A stretch of 29,565 nt of DNA from the UHGV virus genome UHGV-0175179. The stretch is one strand, 5' to 3'. Both the position numbers and the translations under genes were made by a program. Shown one piece after another: positions 1,177 through 29,565 of this stretch. The DNA comes from a virus. The notes beneath the pieces are model-generated. The model searched no databases and was not told the origin of the DNA. It saw nothing but the letters and a program-made list of their open reading frames with translations. Positions within the stretch are counted from its first letter, which is position 1, and every line of letters starts with the position of its first letter.

Positions 1177-1245
1177 AAGAAAACCCTCCAACAGTCAGAT
1201 CACTATCCTGGTAACAAATAGTGAAAATGTAATGTTTATATAAAG

Positions 1246-2138: not shown

Positions 2139-2155
2139 TAGTAGCGAGGCTTATC

Positions 2156-2377: not shown

Positions 2378-2392
2378 TTCGGGGAGGTGATT

Positions 2393-2782
2393 ATGTTGAT
2401 GGATAAGACAGGACCGCAGCCAGGCCGCCGCCAGTTCTTAGAGCAACGGGCGCGGCTGCAAGCCAGTTTGAACGCCTCACGCGTGAATGACACTGCAACC
2501 CGTTTTAACCGCCTGGATGATGCCTGCAAAAAGGTGATTTTCATCCTGGCAAACGATGCGTCCAGATACATAGCCGGAATGCCGAAACTGAGCGCCAAAC
2601 ATTTGGGTTGCACTTACGAAAATCTAACCGAAAAGGAGCAAACGTGCCTTTTGATGGGCATTAAGCGCCTTACCGAATTTGCAGCATCAATGCCGTGGGA
2701 ATTTGAGGACTACGCCGCGCCACGCGCTGAAATTCAGGCGATACGCGATAAACCACCCACGCCAGATAACGCAGTCAATTAA
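2393..2782 (+). CDS. Hypothetical early protein (~130 aa)
   Basis: ATG at 2393 with GGAGG 5 nt upstream (the track used a GTG at 2387). No recognisable motif. Confidence 0.45.
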   Translation: MLMDKTGPQPGRRQFLEQRARLQASLNASRVNDTATRFNRLDDACKKVIFILANDASRYIAGMPKLSAKHLGCTYENLTEKEQTCLLMGIKRLTEFAASMPWEFEDYAAPRAEIQAIRDKPPTPDNAVN

Positions 2783-2852
2783 CAACTAACTACTCACAAA
2801 AAAGAAACAGGCGCTAACGCGTCGGGCTTCTTGCACCCTGGAGAAAGTAAAA

Positions 2853-3836: not shown

Positions 3837-4036
3837 TGGCAACCCGTATCGATGCAACTCAATCCGAATTTACCCGCGGTGCGCTGGCTGCGCTTAACGA
3901 AGCTAAAACCATTGCGCTTGCCCATGCGACGTTAGCGGGCGTTCTGGCTGGGCCTGACGTGGCTAATACATTGCTGATTTCTTTCAATACGTTATTAGAC
4001 CCGCTAATCGAAAAGCATTCACAACGGGAGGGTTAA
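3836..4036 (+). CDS. Hypothetical small protein (66 aa), translationally coupled between the two methyltransferase genes
   Basis: ATG overlaps the dam stop (TAATG). Ala/Leu-rich, no motif recognised. Confidence 0.4.
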   Translation: MATRIDATQSEFTRGALAALNEAKTIALAHATLAGVLAGPDVANTLLISFNTLLDPLIEKHSQREG

Positions 4037-4038
4037 TC

Positions 4039-5049
4039 GTGGGTGCTTTGGCTTACTACAACGAAATCGATCCATATGCAGCACAGTGGCTGCGCAACCT
4101 CATTGATGCCGGGCATATTGCGCCAGGCATTGTTGATACCCGTTCAATTGAGGATGTAACCCCCAATGACCTTAAAGGCTTTACTCAATGTCACTTCTTT
4201 GCCGGGATCGGTGTGTGGTCATATGCCCTGCGTCTTGTGGGCTGGCCGGACGACAAACCGATCTGGACTGGATCCTGCCCATGCCAGCCTTTCAGCCCGG
4301 CAGGCAAAGCAACTGGGTTTGATGACGAGCGGCACTTATGGCCCGCCTTTCATTGGCTCATTGCTCAGTGCCGCCCTGTCGTTGTCGCTGGCGAGCAATC
4401 TGGAAGCGCTAACGCGAACGTCTGGCTCGACCTTGTACAAACTGACATGGAAAGCCTGGGCTATGCCTTCGGGGCGGTCGCGTTTCCGTCTGCGAGCGTC
4501 GGTGCGCCACACATCCGGGACAGAGCTTACTGGGTGGCCGACACCAACGGCGAGCGCATGGAAACACCCTGGAAATCAGGGGAGGCAGGGAGGCTTGAAT
4601 TTGCAAACGGCCACAGCATTAGCTGGGTGGCCGACACCAACAACACAGAGCAACAACCAAATCTCAGGAGTTGGAGCGGCTGCAGATCACCCGAAGCGCG
4701 GGACAACTTTGGGCGGGGCTGCTCAGCTGTCGGGGTGGCCGACACCAGCTTCAAGGGACGGCAAGGGGGGGTATCAGGGCGGGAGGATGCGCAACGGGAA
4801 GCTGTCGACGGACACGCTGGATGTGACGGCGCAAATTGCGGGACCGGTCCGGTTAACGGTTTCTGGCGATCTGCTGACTGGCTGTATTGCCGGGATGGAA
4901 ACTGGAGGCCAGTTAAACCCGGACTTAAGCCGCTGGTTGATGGGGTTACCGGACGAGTGGGAAAAATCCGCGCCTACGGAAACGCTATCAACGTTGAAGC
5001 TGCAACAGCGTTCATAAAGGCTTATATGATGGGGGCGTCAAATGTCTGA
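4039..5049 (+). CDS. DNA cytosine-5 methyltransferase, phage orphan Dcm-like (GTG start); reading frame integrity uncertain
   Basis: Motif I-like FAGIGVW, motif IV PCQPFSPAG, motif VIII-like APHIRDRAYWVA and motif X-like RAYGNAINVEAATAFIKAY in this frame. GGGAGG 7 nt upstream of the GTG. The stop overlaps the gpA start. Confidence 0.8.
   Translation: MGALAYYNEIDPYAAQWLRNLIDAGHIAPGIVDTRSIEDVTPNDLKGFTQCHFFAGIGVWSYALRLVGWPDDKPIWTGSCPCQPFSPAGKATGFDDERHLWPAFHWLIAQCRPVVVAGEQSGSANANVWLDLVQTDMESLGYAFGAVAFPSASVGAPHIRDRAYWVADTNGERMETPWKSGEAGRLEFANGHSISWVADTNNTEQQPNLRSWSGCRSPEARDNFGRGCSAVGVADTSFKGRQGGVSGREDAQREAVDGHAGCDGANCGTGPVNGFWRSADWLYCRDGNWRPVKPGLKPLVDGVTGRVGKIRAYGNAINVEAATAFIKAYMMGASNV
4531..4749 (+). 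repeat. Three direct copies of a ~15-bp motif GGGTGGCCGACACCA inside the Dcm-like gene
   Basis: Copies at 4531-4548, 4623-4641 and 4732-4749, read directly from the sequence. They encode WVADTN / WVADTN / GVADTS in the gene frame and GWPTP three times in the overlapping frame. Confidence 0.8.
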
Positions 5050-7660: not shown

Positions 7661-7662
7661 GC

Positions 7663-7878
7663 ATGAAAATTATTATTGGACATAAGAAGCAAAATAATCA
7701 GTTAGATGTAGTTGTAAGTGCCTGGTGTTGGGAAATAGAGCAACTCAATAAGCTGACAAAAGAAGTGATCCGGGTGTTTTTTGTGGAGGGGGAAGCAACG
7801 TGCGTGCCGTCGTCATTTCTTCTGCGTCGTAAATACAAGGTAAGCGGGCCGGAAAGTTCTAAATCTTCCACCAGATAA
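7663..7878 (+). CDS. Hypothetical small protein (71 aa) in an AT-rich islet
   Basis: ATG at 7663 with AGGGG 5 nt upstream. Markedly lower G+C than the flanking phage genes (by eye). Followed by a terminator-like hairpin. Confidence 0.35.
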   Translation: MKIIIGHKKQNNQLDVVVSAWCWEIEQLNKLTKEVIRVFFVEGEATCVPSSFLLRRKYKVSGPESSKSSTR

Positions 7879-7892
7879 AACAGTCAATCGCG

Positions 7893-7925
7893 AAAACCTG
7901 CGTTACTTGTTGCGCGGGTTTTCAC
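7893..7925 (+). terminator. Putative intrinsic terminator of the early operon
   Basis: Stem CCTGCG (7897-7902) pairs with CGCGGG (7913-7918) around a 10-nt loop, followed by TTTT (7919-7922). Sits 15 nt after the stop of the 7663 ORF. Confidence 0.35.
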
Positions 7926-7989
7926 GATTCTGCGGGTGCGGGCGGCAAAGAGTCCGCATGTTTTGATTCTAAAAGTGAGATAAGAAAAA

Positions 7990-8205
7990 ATGAAAGCGAG
8001 TTATATCAGTTACTTTGAAGGTTACGATGCAATTGGCCGAATGATTTTTAATGGCAATGGTTCATGTTCGGTTGAATACGACGAGACTGAGGGAATCGAT
8101 CCTGAAGGGTTGCAGGTCGCGCATTGTGAGCATCTTTTAAAGGTGGCCCAGGCCAAAAATACCAGTGTCGTGAGAGTCACGATTAATAACATGATGAAAC
8201 TGTAA
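7990..8205 (+). CDS. Hypothetical small protein (71 aa) in an AT-rich islet
   Basis: ORF with ATG at 7990 and a weak RBS. Low G+C. Convergent with the ogr-like gene and separated from it by a hairpin terminator. Confidence 0.3.
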   Translation: MKASYISYFEGYDAIGRMIFNGNGSCSVEYDETEGIDPEGLQVAHCEHLLKVAQAKNTSVVRVTINNMMKL

Positions 8206-8221
8206 TTGTTATCAATTCCAA

Positions 8222-8253
8222 TAGTTAAAAAGCCCGCTTTATGCGGGCTTCGT
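8222..8253 (-). terminator. Rho-independent terminator, mainly for the leftward P-Q-ogr transcript (bidirectional hairpin)
   Basis: AGCCCGC / GCGGGCT stem with a 5-nt loop (8231-8249). On the minus strand it is followed by TTTTT; on the plus strand by a weaker T-rich tail. Confidence 0.5.
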
Positions 8254-8580
8254 TTATGCTGTCTGGCCGTTGAGCAGGTCCAGCGCGAATTGACGTTCTT
8301 CCGGCTTGAGCCGGTCAATCAGGAATTTAACCAGCTTGTTACCGGTCAGCCCGCTGGGGCTGAGAGTATGTGAAAACTGGGCGTTAAAAACAAAGGTATG
8401 GCCGCATTCAACTTCCGTGCAGGCGCAGTACAAATCAGCCAGTTTTTTGTCTTTCCAGTCAGATTTACGAATGATGGCCGGTGAGCCGCATTCAGGACAT
8501 TTAATTTTAAAAACTCGCATGTTCACCATCCCGCACGCCATTGCTAACAATGGGGATGATTTTAACTTAATTGCGCTCAT
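8254..8580 (-). CDS. ogr: Ogr/Delta-family zinc-finger late transcription activator (possible shorter form starting at 8520)
   Basis: CPECG...LYCACTEVECGHTFVF matches the Ogr/Delta C4 zinc-finger pattern (P2 Ogr CPLC...YHQCQNVNCSATFIT). The ATG at 8580 overlaps the portal stop (ATGA); an internal ATG at 8520 would give an Ogr-sized 89-aa product. Confidence 0.75.
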   Translation of the reverse strand: MSAIKLKSSPLLAMACGMVNMRVFKIKCPECGSPAIIRKSDWKDKKLADLYCACTEVECGHTFVFNAQFSHTLSPSGLTGNKLVKFLIDRLKPEERQFALDLLNGQTA

Positions 8581-9638
8581 TTTTCGCCCTTTTCGGCGGT
8601 GATTGCCGGGATATCCACGTCAAAAACCAGGTGCAAGTGTGCGGGGATCTCCGGGTCATTGTTGACGCCGTTCATTAGCTTGCGCTGCAACGGGATAACT
8701 TCATCCTTGCGATAGGTTGTGCGGGCGGTTTCAGGGTTGCCCATTACCGCGCCGTTGGTCGGGATGATACCCGCCAGGCCAGCGGGAAAACGGTGGGCGG
8801 TAAAGATATCCTGTGCGGTGATCCCTTTGATGTTGGCGAATTCATCCTTTGCGCTGACTTCGCCCACTGGCATGATTTTAACCCCTTCCGGGTCGCCCTT
8901 CGGGATGTTGATAAACATATTGCGGAAGTTACCCAGCCCTTTGGACTGGGCGATCTTCTCTTTGATTTCGTTTTCCATTTCCAGCGTGAGATTGGGATCG
9001 CTGGTATAGAGAATAAAGCCCATGTGCGCCCCGTTATTGTAGTAACGGCGGCGGAAAATGGTTGCCTCACTGTTGAGTAACACCGAATGGATGCCGCCGA
9101 TATAGTCAGGCAGGCCATATACCTGCTGGCGCGGGTCGTACATTTTAAAGAAAACGATGTCTTCCGGGTCATAGATAAGCGCTGGCCCTTCCTGCAGAAC
9201 AGCAAACGAGCCGTCTTTCCGGCAGCGCAGATACAGCGACGGCAGCGGCAGCAGGTCGATCACTTCCCCGAATACGTTACGAATTTTCAGGATAGCGACG
9301 TCACCAAACAGCAGGTAATCAAAGACAGCCTGTTCGACCTGGTCAGGCGTCAGGCCGCCGCCAATATAGCCACCGGCCACCATATTGCGCCGCGCATACA
9401 GCACCCCACCATGCTGGCCGTTAAGGTTCGGCAACTGGGCCAGCGCCAGGCGATCAATCGGGAGTCGCCAGTGGTCATATTCATTGTCATACCAGATATT
9501 GTGATAATCCGTGCCGGTCGTCAGGATGGGTTCGGGTTCGCCAAATGTGATCACGCTTCCGCGCCCTGGCGTGAAGGTTTCAACCTTGCTGCCGGTCATG
9601 GACCTGAATTTTTTATTATTACGCTGTTTCTTTGTCAT
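8577..9638 (-). CDS. Q: Portal protein, P2 gpQ-like
   Basis: 353 aa. Lies immediately downstream of the large terminase gene on the same strand with an ATGA overlap, as in P2 (P then Q). Size and sequence character match gpQ. Confidence 0.8.
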   Translation of the reverse strand: MTKKQRNNKKFRSMTGSKVETFTPGRGSVITFGEPEPILTTGTDYHNIWYDNEYDHWRLPIDRLALAQLPNLNGQHGGVLYARRNMVAGGYIGGGLTPDQVEQAVFDYLLFGDVAILKIRNVFGEVIDLLPLPSLYLRCRKDGSFAVLQEGPALIYDPEDIVFFKMYDPRQQVYGLPDYIGGIHSVLLNSEATIFRRRYYNNGAHMGFILYTSDPNLTLEMENEIKEKIAQSKGLGNFRNMFINIPKGDPEGVKIMPVGEVSAKDEFANIKGITAQDIFTAHRFPAGLAGIIPTNGAVMGNPETARTTYRKDEVIPLQRKLMNGVNNDPEIPAHLHLVFDVDIPAITAEKGEK

Positions 9639-11446
9639 GCTGCTTTCCCAAAGTACCAGCCCGATGGGCGGTCATATTCGTGATCGATAGGTTCGTTAAT
9701 TACGGCGTGCGAAATGGCGAAGAAAACATCTGCATGGCCGGTCGCATCAGAGCGTTCGGCAACAAACGTCAGCGCGTTGCCGCTGTTGGTTGTCGTGCGC
9801 CGGATAGCCATAAAGCTGGCCGGAATTTCGACACGCTCCTTGTTCGTTTCGTCTACGGCGTCTTTTGCCCATTCGATGCGCTTACGCTCGACAACGTCGA
9901 TCATCTTCATTACCAGACGGTTTTTGCTTTCGACGCTGTAAAGAATCGGTGTGGCTTCGCGTGGAGCAAACTTGCTGACCAGGTCATAAACGCCTTTACC
10001 AATGCCGGTTGTATCGATCCCGATGTAAGTGATGTTAAAGCGGCGCATAAGCTGCTTTATCTGGTCAGCCTGCCAGCTAAAGTTAAAGCCCTGCCATTGC
10101 CAGACGGCCAGCACGCGGAAGCGCTCGCCGTCCTCTATGGGGGGCGCGATTAACACAAAGGTGGAGTTGTCGCCGGATCGCGATGGGTCAAAGCCTGCCC
10201 ATACTTCGCGATTGCCGAAGGGTCGTGCAGCGGTTAGATCAAAGTCGCCCCATGTGGCTCGGTCCACTTCGCAGCCGACAAGCGCGGAGAACTTGAAAAC
10301 CGCGTCCTTACTGTCAACAAACTGGCACATGTAGAGCATGGCAAACGCGGTCGGGCTGTATTTGTTGCGCAGCCGTTCAATATCGACAAGCGCCCCGAGG
10401 CCGCCTTCGATAGCGTCTTCCATCGTGATGATGTAGCGCCAGATCTGGTCCGGGCAAAGAATGCCATGGCGCATTTCGCTTTCTTTCGGAAACGCCACAC
10501 CTTTGCGTTTCGGGTCGTCCCCGCGCCAGGCTTCGCCAGTCCAGACCGGGTAAGCCTGGTGCGTTTTCGCGCTGGGCGTCGAAAAGTAGGTCGTGCGGTA
10601 TTTGTTATGCGTTGCCATTGCGCTGGCAACTTCATGCAGGCGCGTGAATTTCGGGATCCAGAAAACCTCATCACCATACAGGTGGCCGTTAAAGCCCTGC
10701 GCGGTGCTGGCGTTCGTGGACAAAAAGCGCAGTATTGCGCCGTTGCTGAGGCGGATATTTTTACCCGTCAGCGTCACGCCGAAATGGTTCTGAGCGATCT
10801 GGACGATGTATTCACGGAAGATTTCAGACTGGGAGCGGCTTGCAGAGAAAAAGACCTGGTTATCACCGGTAATGACAGCATCTTCGAATGCCTCCCAGGC
10901 GAAATAATAGGTCATGCCTACCTGTCGGCTTTTCAGAATGAAACGCCAGTCTTCGCCTTTATGTTCGCGGCAGTGCAGCTGGTACTCGAAGAGATGTTCC
11001 CGCGCCCAGGTGTCGAGCATTTCCGCTGTAATACCGGAAACGTCGTTTTTCTTATACCGGCGCTTTCTTTCCCCAGGTTCCCCGCCTGCGCTGCTGAGGC
11101 AGTACCCTTCATCATCATAAGCCGCTTTCTGGGCCTGAATTTCTGCCAGCTTTTCGGCGTGCTTGTTGCGCTGCGCCATGAGTTTTACATGGTGAGCAAT
11201 CAGATCGCGCAGTTCTTCCAGTTCCAGCGCTGTTTTTTTCTCGCGGCGGGAGAGCTGGTCGATACGGCGGGCGATGACATTTTCCACCGATTCAACAGGC
11301 AGCAGTGATGCCCACTTCCCGACGTCAGCCCAGTGGTAAATTGTACGCGGTGGAATATTCAGTTCCTGCGCAATATCTTTCGGCGTCCAGCTTTTTATAT
11401 AAAGCGTGCGGGCCGCTTCTTTTAATTCATCGGAATATTTAGCCAT
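9635..11446 (-). CDS. P: Terminase large (ATPase) subunit, P2 gpP-like
   Basis: 603 aa. Walker A-like segment (LKSRQVGMTYYFAWEA region) and nuclease-domain character. Divergently arranged against the scaffold gene, as P2 P/O. Confidence 0.85.
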   Translation of the reverse strand: MAKYSDELKEAARTLYIKSWTPKDIAQELNIPPRTIYHWADVGKWASLLPVESVENVIARRIDQLSRREKKTALELEELRDLIAHHVKLMAQRNKHAEKLAEIQAQKAAYDDEGYCLSSAGGEPGERKRRYKKNDVSGITAEMLDTWAREHLFEYQLHCREHKGEDWRFILKSRQVGMTYYFAWEAFEDAVITGDNQVFFSASRSQSEIFREYIVQIAQNHFGVTLTGKNIRLSNGAILRFLSTNASTAQGFNGHLYGDEVFWIPKFTRLHEVASAMATHNKYRTTYFSTPSAKTHQAYPVWTGEAWRGDDPKRKGVAFPKESEMRHGILCPDQIWRYIITMEDAIEGGLGALVDIERLRNKYSPTAFAMLYMCQFVDSKDAVFKFSALVGCEVDRATWGDFDLTAARPFGNREVWAGFDPSRSGDNSTFVLIAPPIEDGERFRVLAVWQWQGFNFSWQADQIKQLMRRFNITYIGIDTTGIGKGVYDLVSKFAPREATPILYSVESKNRLVMKMIDVVERKRIEWAKDAVDETNKERVEIPASFMAIRRTTTNSGNALTFVAERSDATGHADVFFAISHAVINEPIDHEYDRPSGWYFGKAA

Positions 11447-18910: not shown

Positions 18911-19176
18911 GTAAACCGAAAAAAATCGCCATGACCGTGGCGGGCGTAAATCTGAGCTTTGAGCCGAATAAAACCGCGTTTAACAACCTGCTTAACGAAA
19001 TGACCATGACCAATAAGGTTGCCCCTATGGTGACGTATCTGGGCCGCATTGTTGATGCCGAGTGTAAAGAGTCGCTCAACAAGCTGATGGAAGATTATCC
19101 GGGTTGCGAAATGCAGATCGTCGAGAAAGTTAACGAGATTTACTCCCCCAAACTTGAGATCGAAGTAAAAAACTGA
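18907..19176 (+). CDS. Tail assembly chaperone (P2 gpE / lambda gpG analogue), short form
   Basis: 89-aa ORF immediately upstream of the tape measure gene. Ends with slippery heptamer A_AAA_AAC in the zero-frame register. Confidence 0.6.
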   Translation: MSKPKKIAMTVAGVNLSFEPNKTAFNNLLNEMTMTNKVAPMVTYLGRIVDAECKESLNKLMEDYPGCEMQIVEKVNEIYSPKLEIEVKN

Positions 19177-19364
19177 CGGCGCGGGTAGCGGCCATTCGCA
19201 CAAATGCGCTTGAGCAATACCTTGCCCTGCGCCGCTACTACCTCCCGCACGAAGCCGACGACGAAGAAAGCATCGCCCGCGCCCTGTGGCTGGACGAATA
19301 TTTCGCCCAGACCCGCGCCAGCAAGACGGCGGAAGGGATAGCCATCGCATTTAACGGAAACTGA
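18907..19364 (+). CDS. Tail assembly chaperone frameshift-extended form (gpE+E' / gpGT analogue) via -1 programmed frameshift
   Basis: The -1 frame is open from 19173 to a TGA at 19362-19364 with no internal ATG. It fills exactly the otherwise empty 190 bp before the tape measure start at 19366. Confidence 0.55.
19167..19173 (+). other. Programmed -1 ribosomal frameshift slippery site A_AAA_AAC
   Basis: Heptamer AAAAAAC in the X_XXY_YYZ register relative to the chaperone frame, 1 nt before the zero-frame stop. Confidence 0.55.
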
Positions 19365-19365
19365 T

Positions 19366-21480
19366 ATGAGCCACCTGGATTTTACCCTGAGCCTGATCGA
19401 TAAGCTGACGCGGCCATTAAAGACGGCCCAGTCTTCGTTGTCCGGCTTTGCTGAAAAATCGCAGGCGTCTTTTACAAAAATCGGGATCGGTGCGGCGGCT
19501 GTCTGGGGGGTGGCACAGTCCATCGCGGGCGTGGTGGGTCCGGCGTATGAGATGAACGCCGCACTTGCAGAAGTGGGTTCCAAAGGCGTGGCAGAGGACG
19601 CGCTGAAGCGTCTGTCCGGTGAAGCCATGCGATTCAGTATGCGCTACGGCAAAGGGGCCGTTGATGTGGTCCGGTCAAGCTATGCGATGAAAGGCGCAAT
19701 GGCGGGCCTGTCCGATATGGACCTGCCCCGCGTCACCATCGCGGCCAATACCCTGGCCGCAGGCGTCAAGGCCAGCGGCGAAGAGGCAGGCGAATACATC
19801 GGCGCGATGGCGTCACGCTTCAACGCGGAGTTGTCCAGTCTGGGCCATGTACGTTTTGCCGAAGAGCTGGCAGGGAAAACGGCGTACATGGTGCAAAACT
19901 TCGGCGTGAAAATGCAGACCATGCAGGAGCTTATCGAGGGGACGAAAAGCGCCGGTGCTGACTTTGGCGTCAGCCTGGATGAACAGTTCGCCGTCCTGGG
20001 TACGCTTTCGCGCACGCTGGGTACTGAGGCCAGCGGGATCTACGAGCAGTTTTTACGCAGCGCCCCGGCTGCCGCTGAAAAGCTGGGTATGAGCTTTGTC
20101 GATGCCACCGGAAAAATGCTGCCGATGGGTGACATTCTGCAAAAACTTCAGAGCAAATACGGGCAGAGCATTGAAGGAAACGTCAAGGCACAACAGGCGC
20201 TGGACGCCGCGTTCGGTGGTGGTGCTGACGTTATCAAAAAGCTGTACGGTCAGCAGGATAAATTAAACCGCAGCATCACCGAACTGGGCAGAAATGACGG
20301 GATGAAACGCGCCCAGGAAATGGCCGAACGAATGGCCGAGCCGTGGGAACGTATCAAAGCGACATTCTTTGCCATTCGCGCGGCGATTGGTAACACGCTG
20401 ATCCCTATCCTGTCGCCGCTGATGAACCGTATTGCCGACGTGGGGACAAAATTTGCCCGCTGGCTGGATATGTTCCCGAATATTGCCCGCTGGCTGGGTT
20501 ACATCACCCTGGGCGTGTTGTCATTCGGGCTGGCCGGGGCGGCGGTCAATATCGTGATGGGGGTCTTTGGCTTCACCATGACGGGGCTGGCCGCAATCGC
20601 TAAGGTACTGGGCGGCGCATGGAAACTCCTGTTATGGACGCTCAACCTGTTGCGTCCGTCCCTGCTGACGACGCGCATCGGTCTGGCTGCATTGTGGATC
20701 CAGTCAAAATTACTGGCGCTGTGGACGGGCGTCTGCCGCATCGCGCTTGCTGCATGGAATATCGCGTTAAAGGCCGGGGCCATTGCCATGCGGGTTTACG
20801 GCGCGGCGACCATGTTTGCCGGGGCTGCAATGCAATTCCTGATGAGTCCGATCACCCTGATTATTGCCGCGCTGGCACTTCTGGCCGTGGGGGTCTGGTA
20901 CGTCGTCACCCATTGGGAAGAACTGGCGGCAGCGGTCATGAATACGGCGGCTTTTGACTGGGTGATGTCGGTCGCGGAACAGGTGGGCCAGGTGTTTGCG
21001 CAGGTCTGGCAGTCCATCACTGACGGCTGGGCCGTGGTGGTTGATTTCTTTGCCGGTCTTTCCCCGCTTGCCACCTTTGAAGGGTTCGCACAAACCATCG
21101 GCGGGGTATTCAGCAAACTTTTTGACGTCCTCAAAAATACCTTTGCGTCTACCTATAACTGGATTGTGGAGAAGTTAAACAAGATCCCCGGCGTCAACAT
21201 CGACCTGAAAACCGTTTCGCCACCGGCAGCGGCTGCCGTTCCGGCAAACGCGGTCATTCCTGACAGTGCTGCAGGTTCGTCGAAGCTGAACAGCCCGTCA
21301 GTGCTGACGGGGAACCGAATTAATGCAGACATCCCACGCGGCGGCCTGATGAGTCAGGTTAAAACCGACAGCAAAACCGCCGTTGATAACCGTAAATCGT
21401 GGGGCGATACCTACATCAACGCCCCCAATGGAATCACCCCGGCCCAGTTGGCTGAATGGCAGGAGCTTAACGCAGGATGA
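19366..21480 (+). CDS. Tail tape measure protein
   Basis: 704 aa, Ala/Gly-rich with hydrophobic segments in the C-terminal half. Follows the frameshifted chaperone pair. Confidence 0.85.
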   Translation: MSHLDFTLSLIDKLTRPLKTAQSSLSGFAEKSQASFTKIGIGAAAVWGVAQSIAGVVGPAYEMNAALAEVGSKGVAEDALKRLSGEAMRFSMRYGKGAVDVVRSSYAMKGAMAGLSDMDLPRVTIAANTLAAGVKASGEEAGEYIGAMASRFNAELSSLGHVRFAEELAGKTAYMVQNFGVKMQTMQELIEGTKSAGADFGVSLDEQFAVLGTLSRTLGTEASGIYEQFLRSAPAAAEKLGMSFVDATGKMLPMGDILQKLQSKYGQSIEGNVKAQQALDAAFGGGADVIKKLYGQQDKLNRSITELGRNDGMKRAQEMAERMAEPWERIKATFFAIRAAIGNTLIPILSPLMNRIADVGTKFARWLDMFPNIARWLGYITLGVLSFGLAGAAVNIVMGVFGFTMTGLAAIAKVLGGAWKLLLWTLNLLRPSLLTTRIGLAALWIQSKLLALWTGVCRIALAAWNIALKAGAIAMRVYGAATMFAGAAMQFLMSPITLIIAALALLAVGVWYVVTHWEELAAAVMNTAAFDWVMSVAEQVGQVFAQVWQSITDGWAVVVDFFAGLSPLATFEGFAQTIGGVFSKLFDVLKNTFASTYNWIVEKLNKIPGVNIDLKTVSPPAAAAVPANAVIPDSAAGSSKLNSPSVLTGNRINADIPRGGLMSQVKTDSKTAVDNRKSWGDTYINAPNGITPAQLAEWQELNAG

Positions 21481-21812
21481 GTACCGAACCGTTATACATC
21501 GACCTTTTGATCACTGACGGTGATTTCACGCTGGACAGCGGCAACGAGCCGCGCCGTTGCGATAACCGCGACAGCATCACCCAGGACATTATTCACAGCA
21601 TTCTGGAAAGCGGTATCACCACCCGCCTGATCGGTGAACGCAGCCCGACAATGCGCGGTGACGTGCTGACGCAACTGTCCTTATTGGTGGAAAGCGACGA
21701 ACGTCTGGTCCCAGGAACCATAGTGATCACCGAAGAAACCCTTTCGCGGTTGTATGTCACGGCGGAAACCTACGATTTCGGCCCTGTCGGTACAGAGGTT
21801 AACTATGACTGA
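21477..21812 (+). CDS. Putative small baseplate protein (111 aa)
   Basis: ATG overlaps the tape measure stop (ATGA). Lies between tape measure and the baseplate J-like gene. No clear match to P2 gpW. Confidence 0.35.
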   Translation: MSTEPLYIDLLITDGDFTLDSGNEPRRCDNRDSITQDIIHSILESGITTRLIGERSPTMRGDVLTQLSLLVESDERLVPGTIVITEETLSRLYVTAETYDFGPVGTEVNYD

Positions 21813-22989
21813 GAAACCCGACGTTGATTTTGAAAAGGTACTGAATGACAGCGGGATGCCCGCGACAGAGGCCGAGATTACAGCGGCATTTAAAGCCACC
21901 GTGCAGGCGGAAGGATTTGTCACAAACACGTCGAGGATGTCACCTTTCTGGCGGCTGATTTCGAAGATTGTCACCACGCCGGTGTTATGGCTGCGTGCGG
22001 CGCTGATCGATGTGGTTCTGCGCAACATGTTTGTTGCGACGGCCACCGGTCCCATGTTGCGCCTGTTGGCCTGGGCAGTTCATATCGTGCCTAAAGCGGC
22101 CAGTGCTGCCGATGGCGTGCTTCGGTTCTATAAGCTGAATGCGGCGGATGCGGTCGTTGTGCCTGCCGGAACACTGGTGCAAACGGAGCGCATTAACGGC
22201 GTGGTTTATGTACTGGCCGTGAATGAAGACGTGACACTGCCTGCCGGGGTTGAAAGTGGCCTTGTTCCCGTTACAGCGACTGGCACCGGCAGCGGCTACA
22301 ACCTTGCGCCGGGCTATTACCGGATCTTACCCGTTGAAGTGGCCGGGATCGCCAGCGTGGTTAATGAGGACGAATGGCTGATTACGCCGGGGGCGAATGA
22401 AGAAAGCGACGACGAGCTACGCGACCGCACCCGCAACCAGTTTAATCTGGTGGGGAATTACCACTCTGACGCTATCTACCGGAGCATGATTGCCAGCGTT
22501 CTGGGGCTGAGCGTTGATCGCATTTACTTTTTGCACGATGCCCCACGAGGGCCGGGTACGGCAAATGCTTACCTGTTACTGGATACCGGCGAAGCATCGC
22601 AACCCTTTATTGATGCGGTTAACGATTATGTGAATACCCAGGGCCACCACGGACACGGTGACGATCTGCAGTGTTATGCCATGCCAGAAACCAGCCACAC
22701 CCTGGCGGTGACGGTCTACGTCAAAAGCGTGGAAAACATGGAAGCGGAAGATCTGAGCAGGTTAAAAACCGGTATTACCGACCTGATTCGTTGCGCATTT
22801 CGCGAGAACGCCAATTACGACGTAAAAAAGACGCAACCCTATTCGCGCTATTCCTTTTCGAATCTGGGCCGCGAGATCCACAAGACTTTTCCGGTTGTCG
22901 ATTCCCTGCATTTTTCGCTGACGGATATCGTCAGCGAACTGTCGGTCCCGCGCCTGTCAGGGTTAACGGTGGAGATTGAGAATGACTGA
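21805..22989 (+). CDS. Baseplate J-like protein (gpJ / gp47 family); ATG at 21805 rather than the track start 21754
   Basis: NEESDDELRDRTRNQF resembles the conserved ESDxxLRxR segment of baseplate J proteins. GAGG RBS 7 nt before the ATG at 21805, which overlaps the upstream stop. Confidence 0.65.
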   Translation: MTEKPDVDFEKVLNDSGMPATEAEITAAFKATVQAEGFVTNTSRMSPFWRLISKIVTTPVLWLRAALIDVVLRNMFVATATGPMLRLLAWAVHIVPKAASAADGVLRFYKLNAADAVVVPAGTLVQTERINGVVYVLAVNEDVTLPAGVESGLVPVTATGTGSGYNLAPGYYRILPVEVAGIASVVNEDEWLITPGANEESDDELRDRTRNQFNLVGNYHSDAIYRSMIASVLGLSVDRIYFLHDAPRGPGTANAYLLLDTGEASQPFIDAVNDYVNTQGHHGHGDDLQCYAMPETSHTLAVTVYVKSVENMEAEDLSRLKTGITDLIRCAFRENANYDVKKTQPYSRYSFSNLGREIHKTFPVVDSLHFSLTDIVSELSVPRLSGLTVEIEND

Positions 22990-23575
22990 GTTTTTGAAGT
23001 CGCTTGCCGGTCTTAAATTACCGTCGTGGATGAATAAAGGCGACCCTGCCAGGCTGCTGCGTGCCTGCGTAAAATTCTGGTCGCAGGTGTACGGGTGGAT
23101 CACCTGGCCGTTAAAACAGTTTGACCCGCTGGTCTGCCCCGAGCCGTTGTTAAATCTGATTGCCTGGGAACGTGATATTACCCGGTTTAAGGGTGAGCCA
23201 ATCGACATTTTCCGTAAACGGGTGAACTACGCATTTATTAATGCTCAGCAGGCCGGAGAAGTGGCGGGATTTGTCGCCATTTTTGAGCGGCTGGGGATTG
23301 GTTACGTTGAATTACTGGAGCGGCAGGATGGGCTTGACTGGGACGTAATTGTCGTTCGCGTGACAGATCGCCAGATAGCAAGCAACAGTGATCTCCTGCT
23401 GGAAATTATTCGTAAATACGGGCGCACCTGCCGACGTTACCGCTTTGAGGTAATCAATGCCGTGCCACTGAATATCAATATTGGCTGGTATCAGGGGGAA
23501 TATATTTGCTGGCCCGCCACCCTGGGTGATGTGAATAACCAGTCAGAAGCAACATATAGCGCAAGTTTGAAGTAG
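22982..23575 (+). CDS. Putative baseplate / tail protein (gpI-like position)
   Basis: ~198 aa. ATG at 22982 overlaps the J stop, with GGAG 7 nt upstream. Assignment by synteny (J then I then fibre). Confidence 0.45.
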   Translation: MTEFLKSLAGLKLPSWMNKGDPARLLRACVKFWSQVYGWITWPLKQFDPLVCPEPLLNLIAWERDITRFKGEPIDIFRKRVNYAFINAQQAGEVAGFVAIFERLGIGYVELLERQDGLDWDVIVVRVTDRQIASNSDLLLEIIRKYGRTCRRYRFEVINAVPLNINIGWYQGEYICWPATLGDVNNQSEATYSASLK

Positions 23576-23586
23576 AGGAAAGACCT

Positions 23587-25134
23587 ATGTCACAGGCCGT
23601 TATTACAAAAGTATTTTCAGAATGGAAAGCCCGGCAGGCAATTGATAATCAGCCCGTCACGCTGGATGAATTTATTTTCGCTTATATTCCGGGGCTGGAT
23701 ACTGATAAGCCGATTGATAATACCGAGACAATACCCACAGCGGATAAAATTGTTGATCGCCTGCCGGTAAGTAAAACCGGCGTTGTGAATGAAAATTCTG
23801 TCGTTTATTCCGTCACTCTGGGTGCGGATGTGGGCGATTATGATTTCAACTGGATCGGACTGGCAAATAAAGCCACCGGTACACTGGCGATGATTATTCA
23901 CGCCCCGACCCAGCGCAAAATCAAAAATACGAACGGCCAGCAGGGAAACGTGCTGGTTCGTTCCATGCTGATGGAATACAGCGGAGCCAGGGAAGCAACA
24001 GAAATTACCACCCCGGCAGAGACATGGCAGATTGATTTTACTGCCCGCCTGGCGGCAATGGATGAGCGCCAGCGCCGCGAAAATATCGATCTGTATGGCG
24101 CAGCGGCATTTTTTGATTCGGGTTACCTGGTCGCAAAGTCCGGCAATCAGTTTTTTGTCACAAAGGGGGCGGGATACGTTGCCGGGTTGCGTGCTGAGCT
24201 GCCCGCAGACCTGAACATCACCGCATCCGCCAGGCCAACAAAGGTCTGGCTTGATGTCTGCTGGACAGGGACGTTAACGAGTGAATGGGCAGTACAGAGC
24301 AACATTACCGTTGCGGCAGATCTTGCCGATTATGTGCTGGGCGGAGTGCAGCATTATGTCTTTGCACTCGCCAGTATTGATGCCGCTGGCAATATCACAG
24401 ATTTACGCCCGAAAGGCACGCTGAATGACCAGGCGGCCAGCGATGCGCTAAAAAAGCATGAGCAATCCAGAAATCATCCTGATGCATCAACCAGCGAAAA
24501 AGGTTTTGTACAGTTAAGCAGTGCAACGGACAGCGATTCCGAAAAACTGGCCGCAACGCCCGCAGCGGTTAAGCAGGTTAACGAGAACGCCAATAAAAGA
24601 CAGCTGGCGAACCCCCTGTTAACTGCGCTTGCCGATCTTGTCACGAAAAAGGACATGTTTCCGTGGTTTACCGGGAAAAATACGGTTGCCATGAGCGCTT
24701 TGACAGAGTTTGCGCGTGAATTGCTAAGTAAAGGGGATGTGGCATCCGTTCTCAGGCATCTGACGCTGGGAGATGCTGCAACAAAAGATGTTGGTGTCAT
24801 GCCAGGACAGGTATTACCCGCCGCCGCTTTTACCGCGCATCTGTCTGGCTCGGGAATGTGTAAGTTTCCTGTGCAGGCAACATCCGGGGCGGTTATTAAT
24901 CTGATTTTTATGTGGGGTGTCACCAGTACCCCGCCAGGATCGTCAGGTGGTTACAATTTCCACACGGCATTTCCTTATGCCTGCCTGATGGCGATGGGGT
25001 GTCGCGGGGCAGATGGTACGAATGCCAGCATGAACGTCAGGGCGCATAACAACACAACAATGATTATTCAGAACTGGGCGCCAGTGGGTTCCGGTTACTG
25101 GGAAGAATGCATCTGGTTTGCAATTGGTTACTGA
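23587..25134 (+). CDS. Tail fibre protein
   Basis: 515 aa. Contains the conserved fibre motif HPDASTSEKGFVQLSSATDSDSEKLAATPAAVKQV. Followed by a tail fibre assembly gene. G+C lower than the surrounding tail genes. Confidence 0.8.
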   Translation: MSQAVITKVFSEWKARQAIDNQPVTLDEFIFAYIPGLDTDKPIDNTETIPTADKIVDRLPVSKTGVVNENSVVYSVTLGADVGDYDFNWIGLANKATGTLAMIIHAPTQRKIKNTNGQQGNVLVRSMLMEYSGAREATEITTPAETWQIDFTARLAAMDERQRRENIDLYGAAAFFDSGYLVAKSGNQFFVTKGAGYVAGLRAELPADLNITASARPTKVWLDVCWTGTLTSEWAVQSNITVAADLADYVLGGVQHYVFALASIDAAGNITDLRPKGTLNDQAASDALKKHEQSRNHPDASTSEKGFVQLSSATDSDSEKLAATPAAVKQVNENANKRQLANPLLTALADLVTKKDMFPWFTGKNTVAMSALTEFARELLSKGDVASVLRHLTLGDAATKDVGVMPGQVLPAAAFTAHLSGSGMCKFPVQATSGAVINLIFMWGVTSTPPGSSGGYNFHTAFPYACLMAMGCRGADGTNASMNVRAHNNTTMIIQNWAPVGSGYWEECIWFAIGY

Positions 25135-25138
25135 GGTG

Positions 25139-25582
25139 ATGATGAGTGATAAATATCGTTTTTCCGGAAATATTTTTTATCCATATTCCAGTAAAGCTGA
25201 TTTTGATGCTGCCGGAACCTGGCCGAAATCCGGCGTGGATGTAGATTTGAATACTTATCTGACTTTTATTCAGCCGCCTCCATATGGAAAGCTGCTTGGT
25301 ACAGATAAAACAGGCGCACCATGCTGGATTGATATTCCGCCATTAACGCGCGAACAACTGATTACCCAGGCTAAATATGAGAAAAGTCGCCGTCTGGACG
25401 AAATTAATACATTTATCAATGACAGGCAGTGGCCGGGTAAAGCAGTGCTGGGTCGTCTTACTGACGACGAAAAAGAACTGTATGGCAAAGCCCTGGATTA
25501 CCTTGATGAGCTTAGCGCTTTAGATCCGCAGGATATACCAGACAACTGGCCGGAATTTGAAGGTTTTAACAATGTGGCGTAA
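25139..25582 (+). CDS. Tail fibre assembly protein (Tfa / gpG-like)
   Basis: C-terminal signature DRQWPGKA...EKELYGKALDYLDELSALDPQDIPDNWPE typical of Tfa chaperones. Low G+C. Start at tandem ATGs 25139/25142. Confidence 0.75.
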   Translation: MMSDKYRFSGNIFYPYSSKADFDAAGTWPKSGVDVDLNTYLTFIQPPPYGKLLGTDKTGAPCWIDIPPLTREQLITQAKYEKSRRLDEINTFINDRQWPGKAVLGRLTDDEKELYGKALDYLDELSALDPQDIPDNWPEFEGFNNVA

Positions 25583-26300
25583 TTCAGTTATTAAAATTGC
25601 CGATGATATGTCGGCTTTATCCTGCTCAGTTATTCCGGCGCATCCCTGGGTTTACGGTCTGGGACAGAACACCGATTCAGGCGGTTATCTCAGTCCGGCC
25701 AATGCGCTGGGATACCTTGCTAAAAAGCTGTTATCCGGTGGCGGTAGCGGTAGCGGTGATGTCATCGTCATGATGGTGGCGGAAAATACCCACGACGCTT
25801 TTATGCAGGGACTGAATAAACTGTCCACCGTATTTCCGGCCCCGGTATTTACGCAGGTAAGCCGTATGGCCGCAGCCGCCGCAGAACTCAGCACGGTAAA
25901 AATGCAGTTGCCGGTTAAAGCCGATGTATTGCCAGCCAGTACGCCGTTATCAGTCTCAACCAACCGGCTGGCGCTGAATGCCCAGCGTGTTGCCGCCGCG
26001 CAGCTGGCCGCCGCAGTCAGTACCACCACAACAGATCTAAAAAACCAGGTGACGGGATTTATTCAGGAGCGGGCCGGTTTGCTGGCCTCACTCAGCCAGG
26101 GACTGGATGAACTGAAAGCCGCCAGCGCGAATATTTTTTCATTCAGCTACAGCGGGAATTATGCCGTTGCCGCCGCTGAATTACTGAAAGGCATCCCGCA
26201 AACAACGGCAGTGCATACCGCCGCGATGATGTTTATCGGGGATTCGTTATCTGACTTAGGGAAGATGCTACATGAGCCAGACCGCACTACTCGCGCTTGA
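25572..26300 (+). CDS. Hypothetical protein (242 aa); tail-associated or cargo
   Basis: ATG at 25572 with GAAGG RBS, overlapping the Tfa stop. Gly/Ser linker GGGSGSG and an Ala-rich helical C-terminal half. No motif recognised. Confidence 0.4.
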   Translation: MWRNSVIKIADDMSALSCSVIPAHPWVYGLGQNTDSGGYLSPANALGYLAKKLLSGGGSGSGDVIVMMVAENTHDAFMQGLNKLSTVFPAPVFTQVSRMAAAAAELSTVKMQLPVKADVLPASTPLSVSTNRLALNAQRVAAAQLAAAVSTTTTDLKNQVTGFIQERAGLLASLSQGLDELKAASANIFSFSYSGNYAVAAAELLKGIPQTTAVHTAAMMFIGDSLSDLGKMLHEPDRTTRA

Positions 26301-26814
26301 TGGTGAAGGGATCGCCATGCAGAACATGCTGGTTTCACCTTCCATGCAGTTTCAGGAGAAAGACCAGTCGGGCCAGACATCGAGCACGGCCAATGCTGAA
26401 CAGGGTATCAAGGCCAAAGAGCTGCGCGTGTCGGGTCTGGTGACATTCGACGACGAAGCCGTCTTACAGCGGCTTTTCCAGCTGGCATCCGCGACCGAAG
26501 CCAGCGGCGCACTGAAAAAGTACCGCGTAGCCAATGCGACGGCGACGGCTATCAACCTTCGTGAAGCCACGTTTACCGGTCAGATTGATGCCGTACCGCA
26601 GGAGGATCGCCTTGCCTGGCAGGTAAGTTTCACCCTGCGTGAAAAAGGCAGCGTCCCGGAAAAACGACAGGCCCGAAAAGGCAACGCGACGGCCAGCACC
26701 AAGCAAACAGGGGTAAAGGGCGCGGGTCCGGCTGCCGGTGCTGATGAGCCAGCCGACAAAATGAGCTGGTTTGAAGAAAAGGTCTTAAAGCCGGTCAACG
26801 ATGCGCTGGGGTAA
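26272..26814 (+). CDS. Hypothetical protein (180 aa); tail-associated or cargo
   Basis: Overlaps the upstream ORF by 29 nt. No motif recognised. Confidence 0.4.
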   Translation: MSQTALLALDGEGIAMQNMLVSPSMQFQEKDQSGQTSSTANAEQGIKAKELRVSGLVTFDDEAVLQRLFQLASATEASGALKKYRVANATATAINLREATFTGQIDAVPQEDRLAWQVSFTLREKGSVPEKRQARKGNATASTKQTGVKGAGPAAGADEPADKMSWFEEKVLKPVNDALG

Positions 26815-26821
26815 TTAAACG

Positions 26822-28546
26822 ATGAAACCAATTAAACGCCTGTACCTTTCCTCTGATCCGGTCCATCTGATTGACTGCAATATCGTGCTGGAGCTGAACG
26901 CGTGCGGTCGGGGGTTTATTACGGCAGGGACAGAGACAGATTACACCGGCAAGATGGTGCGGATCGATGTTGGCTATGATGGTCTGGTCCTGCGCTGGTT
27001 TACCGGGTACGTTGAACGGTCACAGCCTGCTGATAATGGAACATGCCGGTTATTCGTGCGTGAGCTGGTTGGCATCTTTGACAAATTGTGGCCGTGTTCT
27101 TTCCAGCATCCAACGCTGCGCCAGATTACTGACTGGATAAGTGAGCAAAGCGGGCTTACCGTCACAACGCCGGTCGGCGCTGCTTATGCAGATAAACCGA
27201 TCCCCCACTTTACGCATAGCGGCACGGGCTATCAGCTTCTTGCCAGTCTGGGCCGTGCATTTTCAGTGACGGATTATCTTTGGTATCAGCTGCCGGACGG
27301 GGATGTCTTCGTCGGCGCTGCGGAGCACAGTCTTTTTGCGGGTAAACCAGTGGAGATCCCGCACGAATTTAGCCAGGAATCGGCAGGCGGAAATTCAATG
27401 GTTGTGCCAATGATTCAGAGCCTGCGACCGGGTGCGGAAGTGAACGGCCAGCGGCTGAACCAGGTTCGGCTAAATAACGACGACATGGCAATCACATGGC
27501 AGCCCCGCAACAAAGCCAACGGCCAGCCATTGCAAAAATCACCGATTCAGCGGCAGATTGAAAACGCATTCCCGGAGCTGGCAAGCGGCCTGCATCTTCC
27601 AAAGTTCGCCAGGGTGGAAGCACCAAGCGAGGATGTTTCCGGGGGGAATATTGCCGATCCATTCCGCCCGCGCTACGCCGTGGATCTCCAGCTGCTTGAC
27701 GAAGACGGCAAGCCAGCCGCAAATACGCCGGTTTATTCTGCCGTTCCGCTACCTGTGCCAATGGCGGGCAGCGAGTCGGGAATGTTCCAGTTTCCGCCCC
27801 CTGGCACGCTGGTTGAAATTGGGTTCACTGAGGGGCGGCAGGATAAGCCCTTTGTGCGCCAGATTATGGCGGAGGGTCATAACCTGCCAGCGGTTAAACC
27901 CGGCGAGCAGTTGCAGCAACAGCGCGATGGTGTATCGCAGCGCGTGACGGTTGCCGGAGACTGGGAACGCCAGACGGACCAGACAATCCGCGAAAACTCC
28001 ATGATGCGCGAAGTCACCACCGACGAAGAGATCCGCAAAGTGGTTGTCCGTGAAACTACGGTCCAGGCAACGGATAAAACAACCGTGCTTGGCACGGCCA
28101 CACTTCTGGCCGGGGCGGTGGTCCATATCAGCGAGGGTGATTACAGTATCGGCACATCCGGCAACCTGACAGTAACCTGCAGCAAGGACAATTCCGTCAG
28201 TGTTGGCCGGAACGTAAAACGGGACGTCGCGGGCGATGTTACAGACGACGTGAAAGGGAATGTTACGTCAAACGTCAGCGGCGCACTGACTGAAAAAATC
28301 AGCGGCATCCGCCGAAGTGTGGCCCAGGCGCAACAGCTGATTGCCCCGGTGGTAAAACTGGGAAGCGAAGAGATTAACGTCCTGACACTACTCACCGACA
28401 CCCTGGACGTGGTGAGGGAGCTGGCAGAGACTGCCGCGTCACATACTCACCCCAATACAGGGGCCAGCGGGCAGGCTGCACAGTTCACCGCAACGGCCAC
28501 TAAAACCGGCACATTAAAAAGCAAATACGGTCCCCTGATAGCCTGA
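26822..28546 (+). CDS. Baseplate central spike protein (gpV / gp5-like OB fold with C-terminal beta-helix)
   Basis: FPPPGTLVEIGFTEGRQDKPFV matches the gpV/gp5 OB-fold signature. C-terminal repeats (GDVTDDVKGNVTSNVSG) and HTHPNTG resemble spike beta-helix and apex His motifs. Confidence 0.6.
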   Translation: MKPIKRLYLSSDPVHLIDCNIVLELNACGRGFITAGTETDYTGKMVRIDVGYDGLVLRWFTGYVERSQPADNGTCRLFVRELVGIFDKLWPCSFQHPTLRQITDWISEQSGLTVTTPVGAAYADKPIPHFTHSGTGYQLLASLGRAFSVTDYLWYQLPDGDVFVGAAEHSLFAGKPVEIPHEFSQESAGGNSMVVPMIQSLRPGAEVNGQRLNQVRLNNDDMAITWQPRNKANGQPLQKSPIQRQIENAFPELASGLHLPKFARVEAPSEDVSGGNIADPFRPRYAVDLQLLDEDGKPAANTPVYSAVPLPVPMAGSESGMFQFPPPGTLVEIGFTEGRQDKPFVRQIMAEGHNLPAVKPGEQLQQQRDGVSQRVTVAGDWERQTDQTIRENSMMREVTTDEEIRKVVVRETTVQATDKTTVLGTATLLAGAVVHISEGDYSIGTSGNLTVTCSKDNSVSVGRNVKRDVAGDVTDDVKGNVTSNVSGALTEKISGIRRSVAQAQQLIAPVVKLGSEEINVLTLLTDTLDVVRELAETAASHTHPNTGASGQAAQFTATATKTGTLKSKYGPLIA

Positions 28547-28750
28547 CAAAAAGCGGTATAATCGCACACCTCACCAGACACCACAGAACGCGCCACAGCA
28601 GGCGCAAGCATTAAAGGTCGCCACCGTGCGGCCTTTCTTTCGTTCGTTCAACAGCGGCCCACAGCGTAAGCGACAGCTGGCAGACGGAAGCGGATCCAGG
28701 ACGGAAACGGCGCTACACCGCACCCGCCTGCGCAGTTTGGATCATAAAAA

Positions 28751-29041
28751 TTTTGCAAAAGAAATTTTGTGCAAAGCACCCCGCCAGCCTGCGCCGCTGC
28801 TGGGCTTTTGAATCCTGCGGGTGTTTGCACGCTGCGCAAAGATTTGCAGCACTTTGCAAAAGTCACCGCGCCGCCAGTTGCTAACCGACTGGATAACATG
28901 ATGTTTTTAAAAGGATCGTTTTAGATTCCGTCACGATCAAATGTGGTCGGCGGTAGTCTGGAAAGTTTCTTTGAAAAATGCGTGAAGCCTTGCGCGGCAA
29001 GGCTTTGGGGGAAAATGAGGCTGCTATAGTTTTTGCAAAAT
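28751..29041. repeat. Cluster of TTTGCA(A) / TGCAAA(G) repeats and dyads in the 3' non-coding region
   Basis: TTTTGCAAAAG (28751), TTTGTGCAAAG (28767), TTTGCACGCTGCGCAAAG dyad (28824-28841), TTTGCAGCACTTTGCAAAAG (28843-28862), TTTTTGCAAAAT (29030). A perfect palindrome GCCTTGC-GCG-GCAAGGC at 28987-29003. Confidence 0.5.
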
Positions 29042-29055
29042 AATGCGAGGAAGGA

Positions 29056-29565
29056 TCAATCGGGCAAGCGCCCTTTTGTCACTTCATAATCAACCATTTT
29101 GTTTGTTTTTGTGTCAAGGGTGCATGAATACGTCATGTTAACTTTGGCGTTAAACCCATTCGTAAATTTCAGTTTGTCACCCACGTAAACAATCTGGTTT
29201 TGTTCCGGTTTATTGATGTACCGACTAAAGATATTTTCAAATGCACCGTTGGTCCATTCGAAATCATACTTTGAAGTTTTCTCAATCGGGCTTTTGCAGG
29301 CTACCAAAGCATCAACCAAATGGGCTTCAAAAATACACTGCCCATCATTCTTATCACACACCTTTACTTTTGGCTCATCTTTGGCCGTTGCCTCTTCATC
29401 ACCGCTGAAATACCAGTAACCAATTGCCCCAAGGATTAAAAGAAAAACAAAACCACCCATTGCATCTTTGGCGCTAAAGCCAGGATCCTTTACTCCACAA
29501 TGAGGGCAAGTCTTAGCCTTTGCTGATACCTCTTTTTTGCACTCTTTACATTTTGTCATTGCCAT
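29056..29565 (-). CDS. Zinc-ribbon membrane protein (N-terminal CxxC...CxxC, one TM segment, periplasmic domain); reaches the window edge
   Basis: MAMTKCKECKKEVSAKAKTCPHCG zinc ribbon, then hydrophobic GGFVFLLILGAIGYWYF. Low G+C relative to the prophage. Likely host gene or prophage-edge cargo. Confidence 0.5.
   Translation of the reverse strand: MAMTKCKECKKEVSAKAKTCPHCGVKDPGFSAKDAMGGFVFLLILGAIGYWYFSGDEEATAKDEPKVKVCDKNDGQCIFEAHLVDALVACKSPIEKTSKYDFEWTNGAFENIFSRYINKPEQNQIVYVGDKLKFTNGFNAKVNMTYSCTLDTKTNKMVDYEVTKGRLPD

Follow-up and report, generated by a model that had tools for sequence, protein, structure and literature searches.

The HK97 gp15, P22 SieA, and T4 Imm proteins block the delivery of phage DNA across the cell envelope (PMC10883804; PMC11436027). 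P2-like phages carry cargo genes at hotspots, and a minor hotspot lies between int and att (PMC9122126; PMC13586616). Also named among the systems closest to the gene described here are bitopic proteins of the VirB8/TraM/DotI type, which have periplasmic domains with an NTF2-like fold, and cystatin-like folds. The gene under study lies at the end of a 29,565-nucleotide stretch of viral DNA (UHGV virus genome UHGV-0175179), referred to below as the window, and encodes a small protein with a zinc ribbon, a transmembrane helix, and a predicted extracytoplasmic domain. The phage is an HP1/P2-like temperate member of the Peduoviridae, near Salmonella phage SI7, and has integrated into the promoter of copA in a host resembling Citrobacter braakii. 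The best explanation overall is that the gene is an envelope moron expressed during lysogeny, most likely functioning in superinfection exclusion, a reading to which we would assign a probability of roughly 40%.

The coding sequence occupies positions 29056..29565 on the minus strand (TGA at 29056-29058, ATG at 29563-29565) and encodes 169 amino acids beginning MAMTKCKECKKEVSAKAKTCPHCG. The window ends at the ATG, as the preliminary description had stated, with the start codon forming its last three bases. The reading frame is nonetheless complete, because extended loci, including L003, have an in-frame TAA directly 5' of the ATG and an AAGGAG 9 nt upstream, and because all 57 aligned homologues share a start of MA(M/L). 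The dN/dS ratio against close homologues is about 0.1 to 0.2, which shows that this is a real accessory gene under purifying selection. The low G+C content that had drawn attention to the gene is also apparent (0.408, compared with 0.536 for the window and 0.565 for the neighboring late gene; GC3 is 0.41 in the gene and 0.62 in that neighbor). Low G+C, below that of the neighboring late gene, was seen in 17 of 17 relatives examined, down to 44% protein identity (39-45% against 43-61%), and is therefore a stable property of the gene. Recent acquisition as its source was rejected on the basis of this conservation.

The gene was first described as lying at the prophage edge, either as a horizontally acquired host gene or as cargo next to the prophage. 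It is, with near certainty, cargo within the prophage. Searching for the exact protein located two copies of the gene, separated by 29,678 bp, on contig NODE_35 (147.8 kb) of ENA ERZ17930848. The extended locus L002 reads gsk-ybaL-fsr-ushA-ybaK-ybaP-copA, followed by the gene and then the late tail genes; in L003, the integrase is followed by the att core, the gene, and the same late genes as in L002. Positions 76..9887 and 19056..29565 of the window match the two halves of L003 at 100% identity. The L002 segment is likewise 100% identical to the window. NODE_35 is either a tandem double lysogen or the product of assembly through excised circles, and the junction of int, core, and gene exists either way. 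The order of int, core, gene, and late genes is also found, at 96% identity, in the 29.8-kb IMG/VR viral contig L137.

Alignment of the copA side with the int side gives a 27-bp att core, AAACCT(C/T)CCAGCAAGGGGAAGGTCAAG, at which identity starts. Its int-proximal copy, which is the copA promoter/CueR box, lies at 76..103 of the window (no strand assigned), and positions 1-75 are host DNA. The second copy is located 188 nt upstream of the ATG, just beyond the window (L002 9786-9812), which explains why a direct-repeat search within the window returned no att pair. We take the core to be the -35 to -10 region of the copA promoter together with the CueR operator, reading CTTGACCTTCCCCTTGCTGGAAGGTTTAACCT. 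Within it fall the -35 box, the dyad of the CueR box, and some of the -10 region, which leaves the copA promoter intact, and a further copy of the CueR box with one mismatch sits beside int. The relatives L116 and L122 are also integrated at copA. Flanking the core are five GTCCACA repeats that all point the same way. Two are within the 3' end of int (191-197 and 202-208, minus strand), and the remaining three are on the opposite arm (L003 9852, 9863, and 9883); these are probably arm-type integrase-binding sites.

A pattern made of the core and the host flank recovered empty attB sites in three Citrobacter genomes. In C. braakii ATCC 51113, C. pasteurii, and Citrobacter sp. Cu233, the copA promoter continues uninterrupted into this flank, free of prophage, and no core host gene equivalent to the zinc-ribbon gene occupies the locus. 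Across the flanks, C. braakii ATCC 51113 shares 99% identity with the window's host, which makes that host C. braakii-like. These findings bear directly on the idea that the gene belongs to the host, or to an acquired island, and merely flanks the prophage. The gene is indeed AT-rich and the last before the window ends, but the att core lies outside it, attB is empty in three Citrobacter species, the gene is present in the int-core-gene junction and on the viral contig L137, and prophages elsewhere carry the same gene, leaving this explanation with next to no probability. The description of the gene as next to the prophage thus does not hold, as the core lies 188 nt beyond its ATG, and neither does that of a horizontally acquired host gene, since the empty attB lacks it and its homologues ride on prophages at yegQ and mntR. 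Cargo was the correct term, the gene being within the att boundaries and absent from SI7, and co-occurrence follows the phage rather than the host locus, with related prophages at yegQ and mntR carrying homologues.

On the other side of the gene lies the last late gene of the phage (26822..28546, plus strand), which converges on it and encodes a 574-aa homologue of HP1 and HP2 orf35. This late gene is 98% identical in Salmonella phages SI7, SW5, and SW3 (Peduoviridae, Irrigatiovirus). SI7, which was deposited as an isolated phage, has no homologue of the zinc-ribbon gene, its orf35-int interval holding only two tiny annotated ORFs, and the gene is likewise absent from SW5 and from many prophage relatives. 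Both SI7 and the E. coli prophages lose homology to the window precisely at 28941, and relative to relatives without the gene, this breakpoint (28941/28942) marks positions 28942..29055 (no strand assigned) as non-coding DNA specific to the cassette. To the right of it, the cargo, attP, and int differ among relatives, with int only about 80% identical over 267 nt.

The breakpoint adjoins a non-coding stretch of about 395 nt (28547-28941) that is about 95% conserved in E. coli prophages and SI7/SW5. The SW5 record starts at the equivalent of window position 28720, which may be a cos end. TTTGCAA/TTGCAAA motifs are enriched in this area, with 6 of the 13 in the window falling in 28500-29100, and a promoter-like site at 28535-28562 (plus strand, 10/12 match) points into the stretch. 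An intrinsic terminator-like site follows the late operon at 28613..28646 (plus strand), and a search of 28400-29565 against Rfam gave no match. In the early region of the prophage, two DNA methyltransferase genes (2853-3836 and 4039-5049, plus strand) are situated just upstream of the gpA-like replication gene; the identical genes of L003 carry the Pfam labels MethyltransfD12 (Dam-like) for one and DNA_methylase (C5) for the other.

The content of the slot downstream of orf35 was surveyed in 30 IMG/VR relatives. AbiH was present in five loci and the zinc-ribbon gene in two (L100 and L137), and further cargo consisted of a hexapeptide acyltransferase-like protein, membrane proteins of unknown function, and other unknowns. 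Empty slots were also found, in which the host genes yegQ, fieF/pfkA, gapA, or copA come directly after orf35. In E. coli relatives, AbiH replaces the gene, just before yegQ. Slot cargo was recorded at L001 6631-7596 and in L096, L099, L102-L104, L117, L125, and L129, and that of sister prophages also includes a 287-aa Cys-rich protein and two proteins with multiple transmembrane segments. Most sister-prophage cargo had no PADLOC or Pfam match. The slot is therefore a variable cargo site and the gene dispensable, given that SI7 and SW5 do without it and that slot contents vary.

Despite this dispensability, the gene is persistent in the lineage. Related prophages integrated at yegQ and mntR have homologues of 44-91% identity in this att-proximal place. 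These include Kluyvera prophages at yegQ, where an 81%-identical homologue has the same att-proximal, convergent placement, and mntR prophages of C. freundii and E. coli, where homologues of 49-54% identity are separated from orf35 by extra cargo. Among IMG/VR proviruses of the lineage, 16 are arranged in this way. The gene and orf35 diverge roughly in step (identities of 81% vs 82% and about 50% vs about 64%). It is conceivable that a gene found in the same place in so many members of the lineage, and roughly co-diverging with the neighboring late gene, is needed for lytic growth itself, perhaps in controlling lysis, in the entry of DNA, or in assembling virions. This is highly improbable, however, as SI7, SW5, and many prophage relatives lack the gene, its composition is atypical, and it is transcribed against the late operon. 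With its location inside the att sites, its absence from viable relatives, and its atypical composition, the gene is typical of the morons that Peduoviridae prophages carry next to att.

When the phage genome is mapped as a circle, the minus strand carries the repressor, int, attP, and the gene in that order, so the gene belongs to the lysogeny side of the genome. The integrase (154..1191, minus strand) is directly upstream of attP and the zinc-ribbon gene on this map, and upstream of int is a 99-aa gene (1246..1545, minus strand) that is matched by position to the XRE-family repressor of SI7. Distant full-length homologues (34-42% identity) were found in other temperate phages at 32 loci. In 24 of the 32, a CI-like or HTH repressor ORF is encoded on the same strand no more than 2.5 kb upstream, and in 19 it is directly adjacent, with some of the loci being near-duplicates. 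The seven repressor queries differ in length and in their PHROG matches, and several of these sequence-distinct queries give the best match in different loci. In L031 and L032, the gene has an HTH protein on one side and int on the other; L027 and L011 have it inserted, on the opposite strand, in a tail operon; and in L039 and L049, it converges on a 328-aa tail gene that matches phrog_52 and is presumably gpD-like, after P2.

The linkage to repressors raises the prospect that the protein senses for, or regulates, the lysis-lysogeny switch from the membrane, with the periplasmic domain detecting an envelope cue and the zinc ribbon passing it to the repressor or to DNA. A same-strand CI-like repressor does adjoin the gene in most distant loci, the zinc ribbon is conserved well past its Cys ligands, and the domain layout recalls that of anti-sigma factors, in which a cytoplasmic zinc-binding domain, a transmembrane helix, and a periplasmic domain follow one another. 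However, near-identical zinc ribbons accompany repressors as different as the 99-aa protein of the present phage, an HTH protein of about 120 aa, and an S24-type protein of about 225 aa, and such variety makes a specific repressor partner unlikely. In the phage under study, int and attP separate the gene from the repressor, elsewhere the gene sits in tail operons, and the isolated phage SI7 has no copy of it. A regulator of this kind is accordingly improbable. Still less can be said for a broader version, in which the family would be a widespread, single-protein transmembrane sensor of the lysogeny modules of temperate phages of Proteobacteria, its periplasmic NTF2-like domain picking up an envelope event and its zinc ribbon relaying this to DNA or the immunity circuit; it is very improbable, too, that the cue would be attack by another phage or cell-wall damage and the output a lysis-lysogeny decision or an abortive response.

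Expression of the gene in lysogens appears reasonably likely, the indirect evidence being the repressor genes near its distant homologues in 24 of 32 loci. A sigma-70 scan upstream of the gene returned no site at threshold, and the sole promoter-like candidate was picked out by eye (TTTACT-16-TAGACT, 8/12 match); a strong Shine-Dalgarno sequence is present. In L003, outside the window, the interval from the att core to the gene contains, on the strand of the gene, a strong hairpin followed by seven T residues (9900-9924), so that in a single lysogen the gene needs its own promoter. This hairpin would end the repressor-int transcript in the circular form and would insulate the gene from host read-through in the prophage. 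Downstream, a 9-bp GC-rich hairpin (28985..29005, minus strand; z-score -1.65) lies 51 nt after the stop codon, with UUUUU following after 5 nt. It is possibly a weak terminator of the gene, although the terminator scan did not call it.

The preliminary description of the protein as an N-terminal CxxC...CxxC zinc ribbon followed by one transmembrane helix and a Cys-containing domain is upheld throughout. The zinc ribbon (residues 4-26; 29488..29556, minus strand) is Lys-rich, predicted to be cytoplasmic, and built on Cys6/Cys9 and Cys20/Cys23 in a CxxC-x10-CxxC arrangement. Two CxxC knuckles some 10 to 15 residues apart, as in Zn_ribbon_3 (PF13248) and UPF0547 (PF10571), are thus present. Over residues 2-26, the match to Zn_ribbon_3 misses the Pfam gathering cut-off (22.1 bits vs 27, E 1e-4), as does that to UPF0547 (22.5 bits vs 29), and the stored Pfam annotations of many homologues name both families. 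Across the 57 aligned homologues, C6, C9, C20, C23, P21, G24, and P28 are invariant, and conservation of the ribbon extends well past the Cys ligands. The single hydrophobic stretch, at residues 35-53 (29407..29463, minus strand), has a 19-residue Kyte-Doolittle mean of 1.76 and falls within a helix spanning residues 32-53 in the AlphaFold2 model. The segment before this helix has 8 K+R against 4 D+E, while the segment just after it has 4 against 7. An acidic linker follows (residues 54-69; 29359..29406, minus strand), which is predicted to be disordered (pLDDT below 50 for residues 54-66) and varies in length among homologues.

The remainder of the protein (residues 70-169; 29059..29358, minus strand) is an α+β domain, predicted to be extracytoplasmic, that contains the motif GDK(L/V)KF(T/Q)NGF. 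At 100 residues, it is close to the 110 or so first estimated, and it does carry conserved Cys residues, at positions 70, 77, 90, and 148, of which C77, C90, and C148 are each at least 90% conserved in the 57-homologue alignment. The four conserved Cys probably form two disulfides. Both the charge distribution and the presence in relatives of a lipobox or another membrane anchor before this domain argue for its extracytoplasmic location. We infer a bitopic inner-membrane protein with its N-terminus in and its C-terminus out, the zinc ribbon facing the cytoplasm and the C-terminal domain the periplasm.

AlphaFold2, run with the 57-sequence alignment, models the domain as two helices packed on a five-stranded antiparallel sheet, with residues 70-165 at a pLDDT of about 90; the zinc ribbon and transmembrane helix are modeled less confidently, and residues 54-66 form the disordered linker. 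The modeled fold appears to be generic NTF2/cystatin-like, and structural matches to it are weak. Foldseek searches with the model against BFVD and the PDB gave no match at E <= 0.001, and a profile search of PDB sequences also gave none. No Pfam model was found for the C-terminal domain, DUF2511 (YebY-like, PF10709) was absent from a Pfam scan of the protein at E <= 10, NCBIfam returned noise-level matches only, and none of the families in PADLOC-DB v2 matched at E <= 1.

The class to which this fold would belong, which comprises cystatin, latexin, PepSY, and NTF2, contains many protein inhibitors and ligand binders. It is therefore possible, if rather unlikely, that the protein is a lysogenic-conversion factor outside of defence, the periplasmic domain of which binds or inhibits a component of the host envelope. 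Peptidoglycan, a periplasmic hydrolase or protease, or a redox or metal target could, with similarly modest probability, be what it acts on, affecting fitness, stress tolerance, or colonization. In some relatives, the C-terminal domain is preceded by a peptidoglycan-type SH3_3 domain or by DUF4875, the four conserved Cys are predicted to be periplasmic, and elsewhere the slot holds cargo that does not look like defence, such as the hexapeptide acyltransferase-like protein and the membrane proteins mentioned above. Indeed, a slot that can hold AbiH and adjacency to repressors fit any lysogenic-conversion function and not defence alone. On the other hand, no specific target is indicated and the structural matches are weak, and since the phages integrate at the unrelated sites copA, yegQ, and mntR, a link to copper is coincidental. 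Such a link, based on the copA promoter, the periplasmic Cys, and DUF2511 in N-terminal relatives, was considered and rejected because close homologues occur at yegQ and mntR and because DUF2511 fails to match the protein.

The family itself has already been catalogued, and the gene adds one more moron to it. The protein matches phrog_13160 of PHROGs v4, where function is unassigned, over residues 10-159 (E 5e-23, 82.7 bits), covering positions 1-134 of the 139 in the profile. A search of 5.8 billion protein clusters at 90% identity returned 99 relatives, and those that are named come mostly from Enterobacterales, plus Pseudomonas and Marinobacter; NCBI labels them "zinc ribbon domain-containing protein" or "hypothetical protein." In a profile search of 1.84 billion representatives at 50% identity, 265 clusters were found at E <= 1e-30 and 2210 at E <= 1e-10. 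By tblastn against 50,697 phage records, only 8 matches were obtained, none of them to a named, characterized exclusion gene; HK97, P22, and T4 were absent among the 8, indicating no detectable similarity. Literature searches of the library consulted found no paper on this family. All of the contexts inspected place the family in phages.

The protein consists of two separable modules. The zinc ribbon and transmembrane helix (55-70% identical) also precede DUF4875, Sel1, or DUF2511, the last of these only in relatives where nothing beyond the N-terminal module is shared, and the C-terminal domain also follows other transmembrane anchors, a lipoprotein signal, DUF4875, or SH3_3. Between the window and L012 (IMGVR_UViG_2851019069_000003, 1-510), dS is 1.27 over codons 1-54 and 0.035 over the C-terminal domain, a mosaic that points to recombination within the gene between the anchor module and the periplasmic domain.

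Integration at attP carries the gene to the opposite end of the prophage, where it is separated from the att core by 188 nt and converges on the late tail genes. Taken as an exclusion moron, the gene could function as follows. Lysogens would make the zinc-ribbon protein and place it in the inner membrane, with the Lys-rich ribbon in the cytoplasm, the helix spanning the membrane, and the acidic linker and 100-aa NTF2/cystatin-like domain in the periplasm. There, the protein may act at the envelope to exclude superinfecting phages at or after adsorption, for instance by interfering with the delivery of an incoming phage's DNA across the periplasm. This proposal is drawn from analogy to HK97 gp15, P22 SieA, and T4 Imm/Sp (PMC10883804; PMC11436027), and it is consistent with the presence of AbiH in the slot of sister prophages. 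A role in superinfection exclusion or anti-phage defence is put forward tentatively. Whatever the role, the true boundary of the prophage is now fixed and the gene is phage cargo, not host DNA. It belongs to a family of hundreds of 50%-identity clusters, often beside repressors, whose main domain is without a Pfam model. If the protein does act in exclusion or defence, a common single-gene system working at the level of the envelope would be added to the prophage repertoire.

When set against the described systems, the gene occupies the same kind of position as the att-adjacent or hotspot cargo of P2-like phages, here a slot between the last late gene and attP/int. In this HP1-like phage, the slot runs from the orf35 homologue to attP, as opposed to the gpA-gpQ or Z/fun hotspots of P2, and the gene is not a recognized defence gene. 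Like HK97 gp15, P22 SieA, and T4 Imm, it specifies a small prophage-borne membrane protein in a moron-type position, with relatives beside the repressor. Its predicted architecture sets it apart from SieA, which has three transmembrane helices, in that a single transmembrane helix here joins a zinc ribbon to a folded periplasmic domain.
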